From a virus (lineage: Duplodnaviria > Caudoviricetes), in the IMG/VR virus record IMGVR_UViG_3300047292_000009, positions 1 through 28,224 of that record: a stretch of DNA of 28,224 nucleotides, one strand, 5' to 3'. The position numbers and the translations under genes are program-made. The first letter of the stretch is position 1; every line of letters starts with the position of its first letter. A model generated the notes under the pieces. That model was not told the DNA's origin and made no database searches. It saw nothing but the letters and a program-made list of their open reading frames with translations. This document shows positions 3,757-15,564 of this stretch, in pieces.

Positions 3757-3788
3757 ATTATACGGATGAAGCTTACATGAACCTTACA
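3757..3788 (-). promoter_or_regulatory. Early promoter: TATAAT -10 with an 11-bp direct repeat in place of -35
   Basis: Minus strand TGTAAGGTTCA TGTAAGCTTCA TCCG TATAAT. Confidence 0.6.
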
Positions 3789-3841
3789 AACTAATATATT
3801 TTTAAAGTTTAAACCCTTACGTATAAACCCTACCTTTTGTG

Positions 3842-3875
3842 TCTTATGTCATATATCTTATGTCTTATATAAGAC
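3842..3875. promoter_or_regulatory. SdhR-type (GntR family) operator plus a degenerate copy
   Basis: TCTTATGTCTTATATAAGA at 3856-3874 matches the betaproteobacterial SdhR motif as I recall it; partial copy at 3842-3855. Confidence 0.6.
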
Positions 3876-3965
3876 TTGATAGTAACCCTTTAAAGTTTAG
3901 GGATATTGAGTGACTAGGTAGAAACCCTAGGTATGCCTTAGTAGGTGCTACACCGCCCTTCACAC

Positions 3966-4005
3966 TGTCAATATTCCGACACCTCTAGTGTCAACTTTCC
4001 GACAC
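3966..4005. repeat. 17-bp imperfect direct repeat TGTCAAnnTTCCGACAC x2
   Basis: 3966-3982 and 3989-4005; each copy is pseudo-palindromic (TGTC-N8-GACA). Confidence 0.8.
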
Positions 4006-4051
4006 ACTACCTATAGTGTATGTGAGTACTCACTAACGCTACCTATAGTGT
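4004..4051. promoter_or_regulatory. Tandem NrdR boxes
   Basis: ACACTACCTATAGTGT (4004-4019) and ACGCTACCTATAGTGT (4036-4051) against consensus acaCwAtATaTwGtgt; 32-bp spacing. Confidence 0.7.
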
Positions 4052-4181
4052 ACTGCGAAGTAAGTACTAACTAACCTGAGCTACAAAGTGACTGGGGGGA
4101 GGGTCATGGTGATAGAGATTACTTTTGTGGGAGCCTCTGAAGCACACAAAAAAGGATAATTAGGGACAGATGAAGTAACTA

Positions 4182-4194
4182 TAAGTCCTTGATC
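4182..4194 (-). promoter_or_regulatory. Candidate IHF site
   Basis: Minus strand GATCAAGGACTTA against WATCAANNNNTTR (1 mismatch), with an A/T tract on its 5' side. Confidence 0.45.
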
Positions 4195-4343
4195 TACAAA
4201 GTAAAAATAACAAGAACTACAAAGTATCTAAAATGTATGCAAAAGTGTATACAATTAAGGGTAAGTACAGACAATTTGTACACCTTGGAAAGGGAACTAA
4301 GTTAGAGTTTAGACTCTAAAGTTAAATAAATATAAGAAAAGAC

Positions 4344-4372
4344 TTGACAAATAGACAAACATAGTGTATAAT
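4344..4372 (+). promoter_or_regulatory. Consensus sigma70 promoter for the packaging/late operon
   Basis: TTGACA-17 nt-TATAAT with an A-rich UP element. Confidence 0.9.
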
Positions 4373-4632
4373 ATTCTGTATAGGAAATAATTGTGTTTAC
4401 TAAGAAGCCTGACCCCACTTCTTAGGTTGCTAAGACGTACACCCTAGTAGGGGAACATAGAAGTTAAATACACTATTAACAGTTACTTATAATATATTAC
4501 TTACTAAGTAAATTAATATTAATAACTAATATAAGTACTTATAATATTTATGTCTATGTAACATTTATGTTAATGTCTTAGGTACTTTATAGTACTACAC
4601 TTAAAAGTCTCCCTATAAAGGACAAAGACGAG

Positions 4633-5022
4633 ATGACTGAAGAAATTAAAGACAGTGTTAAGGTTATGTCTCCCAAACTACGTGGTAAAGGGAGACCTCC
4701 AAAGAGTGACCTACAAGCTGTTAAGAACAGAACTAAGAATAAAGTAGGCAGACCTGTAGGAGATGCAGGTAGGCTTCAAGAGTTCAAGGAAAGACTATTA
4801 GCCACAGGTGGTACTAGAATCCTTGATAAGATGATTCAGATAGCCTTGGATGATGAACATCCCGGACAGATGGCAGCTATTAAGTTAGCTATGGATAGGA
4901 TCTTACCAGCCTCAGTGTTTGATACAGCTAAGAGTGGTGGTAGTATGCCTCAGATCAGTATTAACATATCAGGCCTTACAAGTCCAGTTGTGTCTACAAA
5001 CGATGAAGTGATAGACGTATGA
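4633..5022 (+). CDS. terS: Terminase small subunit (putative)
   Basis: Directly upstream of and overlapping terL; basic GRP motifs, helical core, INISG..VIDV tail. Confidence 0.75.
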   Translation: MTEEIKDSVKVMSPKLRGKGRPPKSDLQAVKNRTKNKVGRPVGDAGRLQEFKERLLATGGTRILDKMIQIALDDEHPGQMAAIKLAMDRILPASVFDTAKSGGSMPQISINISGLTSPVVSTNDEVIDV

Positions 5023-6278
5023 CACAATTAAACTTCCAACTGCTTAAGTGGCAACAGAGTGTCTTTAAAGATACTACACGCTTTAAAGTGGTAGCTGCAG
5101 GTCGAAGGTGTGGTAAGTCAAGGCTGTCAGCAGTATCGTTACTGATTGAAGCTCTTAACTGTCCAGATGGGTCAGCTGTGATGTACATAGCACCTACCTT
5201 AGGACAAGCTAGAACGATTATGTGGGACTTACTGCATGAGCTAGGTAGACCTGTGATTAAGTCTAGCCATGTGAATAACTTAGAAATTACCCTTATAAAT
5301 GGTAAGAAGATCTTAGTACGAGGAGCTGATAATCCCGATTCTCTGCGGGGTGTTTCCTTAATTTACGTAGTAATGGACGAGTGTGCCTTTATTAAGGAAG
5401 ATGTATGGCAGAAGATCATTCGAGCTTCACTGTCAGATAAGAAGGGTAGAGCACTGTTCATTAGTACTCCTAGTGGACGTAACTGGTTCTACGATACTTT
5501 TAATCTAGGACAGGATAACACTGACGAAGAGTGGAAGTCTTGGCACTTCACAACTCAGGACAATGAGACTATTGATCCTAAGGAGATTGAGGCTGCAAAG
5601 CGTACATTGAGTTCCTTTGCATTCAAGCAAGAGTACTTGTCTAGTTTCGATACTGCAGGTGCTGATGTCTTTAAAGAGGAATGGTTCAAGACTGCTGAAG
5701 AACCTAGTTACGGTAGCTACATTGTAGCCATTGACTTAGCAGGTTTTGAAGAGGTAGGTAAGAATGCTGGGGCATCTAAGAAGAGATTAGACGAGACAGC
5801 TATTGCAGTTGTTAAGTTAGAGGATAACGGTAACTGGTGGGTTCACAAGATACAACATGGTCGGTGGGACATCAGAGAGACTGCAGTTAACATCTTGAAA
5901 GTGATTAGAGACTTTCAACCTACAAGTATAGGTATTGAGCGAGGAGCATTGAAGAATGCTGTGCTGCCTTACCTGAATGACTTGATGAGGAAGAATAACA
6001 TCTATGCTCACATACAGGACTTAACTCACGGGAATAAGAAGAAGACTGATAGGGTTGTCTGGAGCTTACAAGGTCGCATGGAGCATGGAAGGATTACCTT
6101 CAATGAGGATGAGGACTGGAGTGAGTTTAGAGATCAATTAGTTATGTTCCCTACAGCAGGTGTACATGATGACTTGGTAGATGCTTTAAGTTACATTGAT
6201 CAACTGGCTATAGCTAACTACAACCAAGACTACGAAGATGATGACTACGAAGTCTTAGACGTTATCTCAGGCTACTAG
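5019..6278 (+). CDS. terL: Terminase large subunit
   Basis: Walker A AAGRRCGKS, Walker B VVMDE, coupling motif ISTP, nuclease motifs AIDLA and HDDLVDA. Confidence 0.97.
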   Translation: MTQLNFQLLKWQQSVFKDTTRFKVVAAGRRCGKSRLSAVSLLIEALNCPDGSAVMYIAPTLGQARTIMWDLLHELGRPVIKSSHVNNLEITLINGKKILVRGADNPDSLRGVSLIYVVMDECAFIKEDVWQKIIRASLSDKKGRALFISTPSGRNWFYDTFNLGQDNTDEEWKSWHFTTQDNETIDPKEIEAAKRTLSSFAFKQEYLSSFDTAGADVFKEEWFKTAEEPSYGSYIVAIDLAGFEEVGKNAGASKKRLDETAIAVVKLEDNGNWWVHKIQHGRWDIRETAVNILKVIRDFQPTSIGIERGALKNAVLPYLNDLMRKNNIYAHIQDLTHGNKKKTDRVVWSLQGRMEHGRITFNEDEDWSEFRDQLVMFPTAGVHDDLVDALSYIDQLAIANYNQDYEDDDYEVLDVISGY

Positions 6279-13225: not shown

Positions 13226-14986
13226 ATGACTACGATCATTACAAAGAATAGCAGTACATCATCTGCTACACCTGCGTCAGGGGATCTAACTAAGGGTGAG
13301 TTAGCTGTTAACGTTACAGATAAGAAGCTGTACACCAAAGACAACTCAGGTACAGTTGTTAAGTTGGTAGGCTCTCTAGGTAATCAAGAGGCTTCAGCAG
13401 CTGCTATTACAGGTGGTACATCAGCTGGTGTCGCTATCACTGGTGGTACTATTAACAACACACCTATTGGTGGTACTACAGCTGCAGCTGTGACAGGTAC
13501 TACAGTTACAGCTACTACAGGCTTTGTAGGAGCTATTACAGGTGCTGTGACTGGTAACGTAACTGGTAATGTGACAGGTAACGTCACAGGTAATGTCACA
13601 GGTAACTTGACAGGTAACGTTACAGCATCCTCAGGTAGCTCAACCTTTAACAATGTAACCATTAACGGTACATTGGACATGGATGCAGCTTCCTCAGCTA
13701 CCATTACTAACCTTCCAAACCCTACTAACTCAGGTGATGCAGCTAACAAGGCTTATGTTGACTCAGCCGTTGCAGCTGTTGTCGATGGTGCTCCAGCAGC
13801 GTTGGATACCTTGAATGAGCTTGCAGCAGCCTTGAATGATGATGCTTCATTCTCCACAACTGTAACTAACAGCATTGCAGCTAAGCTTCCCTTGGCTGGT
13901 GGTACTATGTCTGGCAACATTGCCATGGGTACTAACAAGGTGACTGGCTTAGGCACACCTTCATCTAGTACCGATGCAGCTACTAAAGGATATGTAGACA
14001 CTGTTGGTGATGCTAAGTTAGCCTTGGCAGGTGGTACTATGACAGGTAACATTGTCATGGGATCTAACAAGGTTACATCTACAGCTACACCTTCAGCTGA
14101 TAGTGATCTAACAACTAAGACTTACGTTGATAGTATCCTCGGTAGTGCTACATCTGCAGCTACATCAGCCTCAGCAGCAGCTACATCTGCAACCAATGCA
14201 AGTAATTCAGCCTCAGCAGCTTCTACAAGTGCATCTAATGCTTCAGCAAGTGCCTCAGCAGCTGCAGCATCCTATGATAGCTTCGATGATCGCTACTTAG
14301 GCTCTAAAACATCAGCTCCATCAGTTGACAATGATGGTAACTCACTGTTGACAGGTGCTCTGTACTGGAACTCTACATCATCTAACTTATGGGTGTGGTC
14401 TGGTAGTGCATGGACTCAAGCTACACTAACAGCTGGCTCCTTTGCTACATTAGCTGGTAGTGAAACTCTTACAAACAAGACTATTACATTTGCTGACAAC
14501 ACTCTAACCAATGTTGCAAGTCTTAACACAGCACAGACCTTTACAGCTACTAAAACCTTCTCAGGTTCATCATCTGCTACAGCCATTGTTCTAAACGATG
14601 CAGCAGAGGTAGCTACAGTATCTGCAACAGCAGCTACAGGAACGATTAACTACGACATTACAACTCAGTCTGTCTTGTACTACACAAGTAACGCAAGTGG
14701 TAACTGGACAGTTAACTTCAGAGGCTCTAGCGGTACTTCATTGAATACTTTGATGACTACAGGTCAATCAATGACTGTGGCTTTCTTAGTGACTCAAAAC
14801 TCTACTGCTTACTACAACTCTGCTGTGCAAGTTGATGGTACTACATCAGGTGTTACGACTCGGTGGTTAGGTGGTGCGCCTACTGCGGGAAATGCTAGTG
14901 GCATTGATTCATATCGTTATTTGATTATCAAGACAGGTAGTGCGACTTTCACAGTCTTGGCAAGCAACACACAATTTAAGGCATGA
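13226..14986 (+). CDS. Tail fibre protein (proximal)
   Basis: GELAVN..DKKLY N-terminus, GNVT repeats, DAA.K.YVD repeats, APAALDTLNELAAALNDD motif, Ala/Ser coiled coil. Confidence 0.9.
   Translation: MTTIITKNSSTSSATPASGDLTKGELAVNVTDKKLYTKDNSGTVVKLVGSLGNQEASAAAITGGTSAGVAITGGTINNTPIGGTTAAAVTGTTVTATTGFVGAITGAVTGNVTGNVTGNVTGNVTGNLTGNVTASSGSSTFNNVTINGTLDMDAASSATITNLPNPTNSGDAANKAYVDSAVAAVVDGAPAALDTLNELAAALNDDASFSTTVTNSIAAKLPLAGGTMSGNIAMGTNKVTGLGTPSSSTDAATKGYVDTVGDAKLALAGGTMTGNIVMGSNKVTSTATPSADSDLTTKTYVDSILGSATSAATSASAAATSATNASNSASAASTSASNASASASAAAASYDSFDDRYLGSKTSAPSVDNDGNSLLTGALYWNSTSSNLWVWSGSAWTQATLTAGSFATLAGSETLTNKTITFADNTLTNVASLNTAQTFTATKTFSGSSSATAIVLNDAAEVATVSATAATGTINYDITTQSVLYYTSNASGNWTVNFRGSSGTSLNTLMTTGQSMTVAFLVTQNSTAYYNSAVQVDGTTSGVTTRWLGGAPTAGNASGIDSYRYLIIKTGSATFTVLASNTQFKA
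13551..13625 (+). repeat. 12-bp coding tandem repeat (TGNV/L)x6
   Basis: acHggtaaYgtN units encoding TGNVTGNVTGNVTGNVTGNLTGNVT. Confidence 0.85.
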
Positions 14987-15564
14987 TGAATACCGCCTAC
15001 GTTTACACACTGACTGACCCAAGAAATGGGATGCCCTTTTACGTTGGTAAGGGTGTGGGTAGACGTTGCCATTTTCACGCTTGGGAAGCTAAGAATTCTG
15101 ATAAGCCAACATATAAGCTGAACAAGATTCGTAAGATTCAAAGCCTTGGTTTAGACATTGTTGTGCGTAAGGTTGAGGAAAATGTAAGCCATGAGCAAGC
15201 TAAAGAACTTGAATGTTTCTTGATTGCTGAAATGCGTGAGTTTGGGATTGATTTAACAAACTTGACTGATGGTGGTGATGGTACTGAAGGTTACAAACAT
15301 AGCGCAGAAACACTTGCCAAAACTAGACATGATTGGACTGATGAGCAAAAGCAAAGGATTAGTGAATCGCTTAAAGGTAGAAGCAATCCATGTACTGAGC
15401 AACGCAGACAAGCTATTATTGCTGGAACAACTGGTGTAAAGAAATCAACAACAATCAATATGCGTAAGCCAAAGCGTAAAGAACAATGCCCACATTGCGG
15501 AATAATGGCAAGTGGCGGTAACTTAGCTAAGTGGCACATGAACAACTGCAAAAGCAAGGAATAA
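14983..15564 (+). CDS. Free-standing GIY-YIG homing endonuclease (NUMOD3-like motif and C-terminal zinc finger)
   Basis: YVY...FYVGKG..R, ELECFLI, LTNLTDGG, GYKHSAET, CPHCG...WH..NC. Confidence 0.85.
   Translation: MMNTAYVYTLTDPRNGMPFYVGKGVGRRCHFHAWEAKNSDKPTYKLNKIRKIQSLGLDIVVRKVEENVSHEQAKELECFLIAEMREFGIDLTNLTDGGDGTEGYKHSAETLAKTRHDWTDEQKQRISESLKGRSNPCTEQRRQAIIAGTTGVKKSTTINMRKPKRKEQCPHCGIMASGGNLAKWHMNNCKSKE

Follow-up and report, generated by a model that had tools for sequence, protein, structure and literature searches.

The window analysed here, 28,224 nucleotides in length, is the whole 28-kb record of a tailed phage, and its genes are arranged in two divergent arms (Table 1). The gap of 930 bp that separates the leftward early arm from the rightward late arm holds a repeat-rich stretch (3767–4320), which an earlier note had described as a non-coding array of duplicated sites for host transcription factors and as a possible DNA decoy. 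All nine motifs listed in that note were recovered at the same positions and in the same copy numbers, and the stretch indeed holds no credible gene: no ORF of at least 60 aa overlaps it, and its reading frames do not exceed 38 aa. Repeat cover, scored as the positions lying in a 14-mer that has a direct copy at no more than two mismatches, amounted to 37.7%, compared with 4.0 ± 4.5% in dinucleotide shuffles, and was reached by none of 200 shuffles; two 554-bp tiles of a tail-fibre gene exceed the value of the hub, as we call this stretch (0.54 and 0.44). The nonamer of the stretch also occurs twice within the early genes (1842 and 2556). A structured RNA was considered for 3767–4320 and rejected, given no Rfam match at the gathering score and a fold z of −1.55. 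Elsewhere in the window, a homing-endonuclease-like gene (phrog_314) is located between tail-fibre genes at 14983–15564 (+).

Table 1. Genes, promoters and motifs in and around the hub (positions in the window; motif starts are given for the nine motifs of the earlier note).
Feature	Position	Strand	Motif starts	Remarks
Primase-helicase and small genes	below 3702	−		leftward
First early ORF, 32 aa	3604–3702	−		start of leftward early/replication arm
Early promoter −10 hexamer	3757–3762	−		perfect sigma-70 consensus; faces first early gene
Direct repeat, 11-bp period	3767–3788	−	3767/3778	replaces −35; 9 nt upstream of −10
Duplicated site	3817–3832 and 3914–3929		3817/3914	probable host regulator site
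Degenerate extra SdhR-type half site	3842–3855		3842	17/26 over 3842–3867
SdhR-type operator	3856–3881		3856	GntR/HutC-family regulator beside Betaproteobacteria TCA-cycle genes
Left arm	3934–3966	−		inverted copy of right core; probable short-terminal-repeat boundary
Imperfect palindrome pair	3966–4005		3966/3989	23 bp apart
NrdR-type operator pair	4004–4019 and 4036–4051		4004/4036	32 bp apart
14-bp palindrome, two copies	4021–4034 and 4059–4072 (4021–4075)		4022/4060	
Three nonamers and IHF-like site (4182–4194)	4081–4225	+	4081/4194/4217	nonamers arm-core-like
Right arm	4094–4152	+		G-run, conserved core and A-tract; probable end/packaging signal
8-bp palindrome	4246–4253		4246	not conserved
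5-6-5 palindrome	4302–4319		4302	centre about 68 bp upstream of inferred late start
Late sigma-70 promoter	4344–4372	+		perfect 12/12; faces terminase genes
Terminase, portal, capsid, tail and lysis genes	from 4633	+		rightward
Probable terminase small subunit	4633–5022	+		by position only; no family match
Terminase large subunit (TerL)	5019–6278	+		phrog_2, E 1e-47
Thioredoxin, then end of RNR gene	close of window			

The phage showed no cultured relatives by DNA (one chance match), and TerL identity to cultured phages was at most 31% among the 30 matches listed; in IMG/VR, about 3100 stretches match the TerL patterns, and 80 of these were taken. Freshwater runs contain the hub. One run contig covers 3132–6300 without any difference to the window and may derive from the source sample, while one RNA run had no contig over 3014–4267, which is no evidence either way. 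An integrase was absent in five relatives (35–40 kb, rated 96–100% complete; the control was positive in 14/14 genomes), and one complete relative encodes polymerase A, a primase-helicase, endonuclease I and a B12-dependent class II ribonucleotide reductase (RNR). Judged by these relatives, the uncultured phage is therefore likely lytic and self-replicating. A search for a phage RNA polymerase gave no match in the five relatives, and its control was likewise without a match. The motifs described below point to a host within Burkholderiales. One of 241 Polynucleobacter genomes holds a 4.5-kb contig (G059:C27; L496, L498) with a TerL of 73% identity and the same hub type, which constitutes a weak host link and may be a binning stray. 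On the Comamonadaceae side, a family host search returned 1 of 401 genomes, at 32% identity and from a different lineage.

For comparison, loci were anchored on the conserved G-run of the right arm, which gave 166 loci, of which 107 extended 450 bp or more upstream; dereplication left 85, among them the window. Counts over these loci are descriptive because the loci are related and recombine. The NtrC, Fur, LexA, CRP, IHF and sigma-54 labels of hub sites follow patterns that we take to be the consensus of these factors. A 9-mer count made without preset motifs placed the DnaA box at the top (43/85 loci, compared with a maximum of 8 loci for any 9-mer over ten shuffle sets); words of SdhR-type, NtrC-like, Fur-like, sigma-54 and NrdR-type sites came next, in this order. 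Counted with patterns chosen after seeing the data, sites in the 600 bp before versus beyond the G-run numbered 146:3 for DnaA, 27:0 for SdhR, 26:0 for NrdR, 19:0 for Fur, 76:9 for NtrC and 15:7 for IHF, the last being scarcely enriched. With matrices trained on hubs, 41 of 44 matches in the window and the five complete relatives fell in the hub when hub copies at contig ends were counted. DnaA boxes, in the consensus printed in bioRxiv 866236, are carried by 45/85 loci, with up to eight per hub in other phages and none in the window hub; a DnaA-dependent origin is disfavoured, as the window and 40 of the 85 loci are without boxes. The hub is real, selected and lineage-wide, and by its layout it reads as an early/late control hub that is kept in 84 dereplicated relatives.

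Instead of the single uniform array proposed at first, the stretch is built in three layers, namely promoter-linked activator sites, a skeleton of the phage's own and distant host operators. The repeat at 3767–3788, formerly counted as a unit of the decoy array, is better read as the putative activator site of the early promoter. Its arrangement with the −10 is common to 12/85 loci and corresponds to the OmpR/PhoB-type activator geometry, that of a pho box, in which the −35 gives way to a direct repeat of 11-bp period at about 10 nt from the −10. The OmpR-type label thereby stands for the geometry and not for a regulator tied to a host regulon: matches to the repeat were not enriched in five host genomes (19 vs 15 in the control). 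A leftward sigma-54 promoter is present in 19 other loci, and the two promoter types occur together in none. At least two enhancer-like sites were found in 17 of these 19 loci vs 9 of the 66 loci without such a promoter, a count that is not independent because the loci are related; mostly, the sites lie 52–180 bp from the promoter. NtrC sites are usually located 100–150 bp upstream (PMC5491218), and the relatives' enhancer sites at 100–180 bp from a −24/−12 promoter resemble the NtrC/sigma-54 systems treated in the available part of that paper. The promoter-linked sites appear ordinary in kind, in that the phage would borrow host activators; unlike in the OmpR/PhoB and NtrC/sigma-54 systems, they would serve as interchangeable modules and switch on the first early genes in a phage that is likely lytic.

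Two further arrangements concern sigma-54. Four loci (L005, L010, L011, L013) combine a leftward sigma-54 promoter with three copies of a palindrome, exactly 21 bp apart and about 180–310 bp before the G-run, which is likely the site of an enhancer-binding protein other than NtrC. The hubs of L038, L040 and L259 contain several sigma-54 −24/−12 matches near the G-run and not at the early gene.

On the late side, sigma-70 promoter matches number 58 in the 85 loci. The palindrome at 4302–4319, another supposed decoy unit, is placed relative to the late promoter as an activator site might be; relatives have a CRP-type site in this slot (18 late-side CRP-pattern matches in the 85 loci). The 8-bp palindrome at 4246–4253 may be a chance occurrence. 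Further downstream, a hairpin at 4401–4424 (+), about 20 nt after the late promoter, was found in 28/85 loci with a nearly invariant 10-nt loop and compensatory stem changes at three pairs; it is possibly an antitermination or leader element, and base pairing could occur between the C-run of its loop and a G-run near 4450. The late promoter is flanked by two copies of a 20-bp element (4278–4297 and 4437–4456) that contains a small hairpin and is kept in close relatives, as is a stretch of the late leader at 4480–4600, which is very AT-rich and palindrome-rich and a possible unwinding element.

The arms and nonamers look like the phage's own end and packaging skeleton. The left arm was detected in 81/85 loci and in none of five shuffle sets, and the right core is matched by the outer portion of this arm when inverted (median 13.8 bits, vs 0.9 on the same strand). 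The right arm was present in 47/73 terL-anchored loci, many of the misses being contigs that are too short, and was matched in about 300 IMG/VR stretches. Together with the IHF-like site, the nonamers are likely sites for phage packaging proteins. As to the IHF label, 4182–4194 matches 12 of the 13 positions of what we take to be the consensus and lies on the late side, where the 85 loci contain 14 exact pattern matches.

That the arms bound a short terminal repeat seems to us fairly probable. Six of the 16 contigs truncated within 600 bp begin at or in the left arm (binomial p 0.0002–0.012, depending on the null), a count based on assembled contigs, where an assembly that breaks off at a conserved block or G-run can pass for a genome end. 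Among the five contigs examined for terminal redundancy, one fits and one conflicts. The fitting contig, G652 (99% complete, TerL 52% identical), starts inside the left arm and ends 37 bp into the right arm, and its ends are identical to each other at 132/136 positions. The conflicting one, G651 (36 kb), starts about 40 bp past the G-run and ends in a poly-G tail, and is therefore a misfit with a repeat beginning at the left arm. The ends of G646, G648 and G649 overlap by 127–138 bp at places outside the hub; these overlaps resemble those made by assemblers, which also weakens the 137-bp overlap of G652. Terminal redundancy was rejected for G647, which actually consists of two strains at 77–80% identity; its ends (L015, L503–L504) repeat about 1.8 kb at this identity with different hub cassettes.

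Among the distant host operators, the SdhR-type site is the most clearly recognisable. It matches 23 of the 26 positions of the SdhR palindrome printed in PMC4494728, a comparative-genomics motif of the HutC subfamily. The exact 19-mer at 3856–3874, which would arise by chance at about 2e-11 per site, was matched in about 4600 bacterial stretches; among the 120 matches listed, nearly all come from Betaproteobacteria. When bacterial loci with full flanks were inspected, 71/80 had mdh, aceA, icd or acn (aconitase) and 51/80 a GntR/HutC gene. Its sequence thus makes the site, as the earlier note had suggested, a host operator with predicted binding, which shares its 26-bp palindrome and its 19-mer with the operators of Betaproteobacteria at mdh/GntR, aceA, icd and acn and, unlike these, lies in a phage hub without a TCA gene. 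In IMG/VR, 116 stretches contain the 19-mer. A terminase gene is visible in 43 of the 80 with full flanks, and in all 43 the operator lies 373–1164 bp upstream of the terminase; host mdh, GntR, aceA, icd and acn genes were found in 0/80. The remaining 37 of the 80 viral loci are without this terminase family nearby, and other phage groups may therefore carry the operator as well.

SdhR sites are present in 19/85 loci, and some phages have three or four tandem copies spaced 21–30 bp. Such amplification was seen at L385:95–182, L326:176–254 and L001, with four copies 23 bp apart or three copies 30 bp apart. The site lies about 95–120 bp upstream of the early −10 in the window and further away in relatives; across loci, SdhR sites are found 76–190 bp upstream of the activator repeat and 128–744 bp from the first early start codon, and at these distances none was found on a promoter under its control.

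NrdR requires two boxes that are 31–32 bp, or three turns, apart (PMC2892513, PMC9110341), and the NrdR and NtrC regulons are widespread (PMC5343134). Like such operators in the available parts of these papers, the NrdR-type pair of the hub is formed by two palindromic boxes of 16 bp that are separated by three helical turns, and in conserved pairs a C is followed by a G at a distance of nine bases. It was found in 12 loci, always at 32-bp spacing, and in 12 of the 13 loci with any NrdR match. These pairs have ten distinct spacers and varied offsets, and their 16-bp boxes are near-invariant; such boxes around diverged spacers of fixed length speak for selection for predicted binding. In host genomes, the best matches precede nrdA or nrdD in 3/5 cases, one pair being also 32 bp apart, while the total number of matches was not above the control (9 vs 13) and the phage box is more uniform than the host boxes. 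Unlike known NrdR operators, the hub pair overlaps no promoter, nor the RNA polymerase site of an RNR operon, the RNR gene of the phage being located at the opposite extremity of the early arm; phages with the pair still encode their own RNR. The pair is a well-supported predicted NrdR operator, in agreement with its first labelling. In the window, 232–264 bp separate it from the early activator repeat downstream, and the distance to the first early start codon is 205–458 bp in 10/11 loci for NrdR and 224–508 bp for Fur. Start-codon distances across loci thus bear out the view that these sites are too far from promoters for steric repression.

The other repeated motifs gave more varied results. 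In three Comamonadaceae genomes, the site at 3817/3914 had 16 matches, many of them preceding transporter genes, vs 1 in the control; in the other two genomes, the numbers were 3 vs 9. The pair at 3966/3989 occurs in 9/85 loci with a spacing of 22–23 in 6/7 pairs, and its exact degenerate pattern matched 0/5 host genomes in one search. The 14-bp palindrome is found in 36/85 loci and at 16 sites vs 5 in the control in five host genomes, where no common target gene was seen.

Across loci, these sites are sorted by the arms. Between the arms lie 25/26 NrdR sites, 19/19 Fur sites and 50/51 copies of the 14-bp palindrome (94/96 together), and outside them 26/27 SdhR, 120/142 DnaA and 65/75 NtrC sites (211/244 together). 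Instead of reflecting function, this compartmentalisation could be the outcome of phages recombining at their conserved arms. The cassettes are optional and differ among near-identical phages: relatives with 95–97% identity in terL lack the NrdR pair (one of them at 96–97%) or have three SdhR copies or three DnaA boxes, and the sigma-54 label changes 7 times for 10 rows on a 39-row terL tree. The comparison proposed in the earlier note thus had the expected outcome, with motifs shuffled as modules, boxes kept and spacers diverged. Helical phasing, including that of operators to the G-run, gave best p values of 0.035 and 0.042 among eight tests, none of which survives correction; SdhR-to-promoter phasing had a p of about 0.015, on eight related distances.

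The sequence and its relatives show divergent promoters, two arms in inverted orientation, an SdhR site of host identity, an NrdR-type pair at 32-bp spacing and cassettes that are exchanged among phages. From these, we infer mechanistic steps that go beyond site identity and layout. Cutting by the terminase at or near the arms would turn the 160–220 bp between them into a short terminal repeat, with the early side leading on entry into the cell. A host activator of the OmpR/PhoB family would then switch on the early promoter, a role that sigma-54 with NtrC or another enhancer protein would have in relatives; with an activator-dependent early promoter, infection would therefore start only in a matching host state. 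Repressors that bind in a replete cell (dATP-loaded NrdR, and in relatives Fur and DnaA) would sit on the end and on the promoter-upstream DNA and might tune entry, end processing or activation. Finally, with tens of genome copies per cell, SdhR and NrdR could be titrated to some extent, either incidentally or to the phage's further benefit. We tentatively favour this reading of the hub as a docking platform that senses the host state at the probable entering genome end, and regard it as close to, if not quite, an even call.

In the decoy reading of the earlier note, which is the main rival and in our judgement doubtful, replicating genomes would titrate SdhR and NrdR (and Fur, LexA and DnaA in relatives) and thereby derepress host TCA/glyoxylate and ribonucleotide reductase genes, as a non-coding counterpart of auxiliary metabolic genes. 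The sites are near-consensus and overlap no promoter, as would suit a decoy; the activator sites of the same hub, however, are promoter-linked, and a decoy should be position-independent, whereas the sites are sorted into fixed compartments, which could be historical. In E. coli, single operators on plasmids of 10–500 copies relieve repression (PMC7826281), and a site inside the terminal repeat would have a doubled dose. Yet the one or two genomes present at infection would titrate nothing, tens to hundreds having been needed in the E. coli work as available to us (PMC7826281), and many copies would be predicted where the window has one or two sites per regulator, even though SdhR sites are in tandem in some phages. 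The RNR typed in a relative is B12-dependent class II, and extra host class Ia enzyme could therefore help; against this, phages with the NrdR pair keep their own RNR. A decoy would also predict retention across the lineage, while the NrdR pair and SdhR sites are limited to 12/85 and 19/85 loci. Strict compartments, optional cassettes and one to four sites per regulator are therefore fitted at least as well by the platform, and the two readings are not exclusive. In a wider form that we hold to be rather unlikely, a lineage-wide, swappable panel of repressor operators (SdhR, NrdR, Fur, LexA, DnaA) on replicating DNA would act as a multi-regulator sponge; were this true, host TCA flux and dNTP supply would rise and host replication would be held back, a gene-free form of auxiliary metabolism.

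It is improbable, in our view, that the hub is a generic coat, anchor or ratchet, in which any abundant host DNA-binding protein shields the entering end from nucleases and end-sensing defences, anchors it or pulls it in. Such a role would account for cassettes that are interchangeable, optional and clustered at a probable end, and for DnaA boxes in 45/85 loci even though a relative encodes its own polymerase and primase-helicase; the T5 DnaA-box model along these lines is itself a proposal (bioRxiv 866236, as far as available). The sites, however, suit ligand-sensing regulators that leave the DNA under stress and not constitutive nucleoid proteins; moreover, IHF is scarcely enriched on the early side, and the window has no DnaA box.

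Quite improbable, too, is the idea that most motifs belong to the phage itself, as replication-origin or packaging sites to which phage proteins or DnaA would bind, with an incidental likeness to host operators. It probably holds for the arms and nonamers, and an NrdR-type box that is more uniform than the host's and one repeat without a host match would agree with it. For the other motifs, it is opposed by the exact SdhR 19-mer, which marks bacterial TCA genes, and by their absence from most relatives, where essential cis sites would not be missing. The GC-skew minimum, which lies at or near the hub in 5/6 records as an origin would have it, is a consequence of the genes switching strand there. 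In addition, a Pfam scan of 34 proteins, most of them without any match, returned no DNA-binding regulator family. Finally, although phages recombine freely at the hub, neutral relics of host promoters gained by recombination are very improbable, as boxes kept while spacers diverge contradict this reading and 0/80 viral loci have flanking host DNA.

Known systems offer partial parallels. For CtrA, experiments showed binding to phage promoters and their regulation, and terminal repeats and gap regions hold clusters of its sites (PMC9437464, Mascolo et al. 2022). As in this "lytic deferment" of Alphaproteobacteria phages, high-scoring host regulator sites are concentrated here in one non-coding end or gap region and are gained and lost among relatives. 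In contrast to the single regulator in the available part of that study, the hub combines SdhR, NrdR-type and OmpR-type sites, and its relatives add DnaA, Fur-, NtrC- and LexA-like and sigma-54 sites; the signal would be metabolic and not cell-cycle-related, the repressor sites are far from promoters, and motifs and host clues indicate a Burkholderiales and not an alphaproteobacterial host. CtrA binding was demonstrated, whereas binding to the hub sites is predicted. The T5 injection-stop region with its eight DnaA boxes (bioRxiv 10.1101/866236, Davison) is likewise repeat-rich, non-coding and near the entering end, and its host-protein boxes, too, are unlikely to be a replication origin. Unlike that region, as far as the preprint was available, the window has no DnaA box and hence no paired boxes in long inverted repeats, and unlike in T5-like phages the genome measures 35–40 kb. 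By analogy, the hub would work like the CtrA clusters and resemble the T5 region while belonging to neither. A host regulator acting on a lytic phage is also known from SrpA control of phage K5 (PMC5945682, available part). Synthetic transcription-factor decoys (PMC7826281, available part) similarly consist of multicopy operators without a target gene; unlike these, the hub is natural and position-sorted, and its effect on host expression is hypothetical. The earlier note knew of no described array of this kind. This remains valid for SdhR/NrdR operators in phage DNA and for a swappable multi-regulator hub, neither of which was reported in the literature searched (most subscription journals and supplements excluded), while CtrA-site clusters and the T5 DnaA boxes, going by the available parts of PMC9437464 and bioRxiv 866236, are precedents for the general arrangement.

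Where lytic phages influence the metabolism of their hosts, proteins are usually assumed to be the means. The hub points to selection for several host metabolic-sensor sites in the non-coding DNA of a common freshwater phage lineage, in which cassettes are swapped faster than the terminase diverges, and the SdhR 19-mer may serve as a host marker for uncultured Burkholderiales phages. If the hub is a decoy, it would represent a metabolic rewiring that is invisible to gene-based surveys of auxiliary metabolic genes. If it is a sensor, lytic phages would make infection depend on the carbon, nitrogen, iron and dNTP supply of the cell, and lytic deferment would be extended from one cell-cycle regulator to a modular panel.
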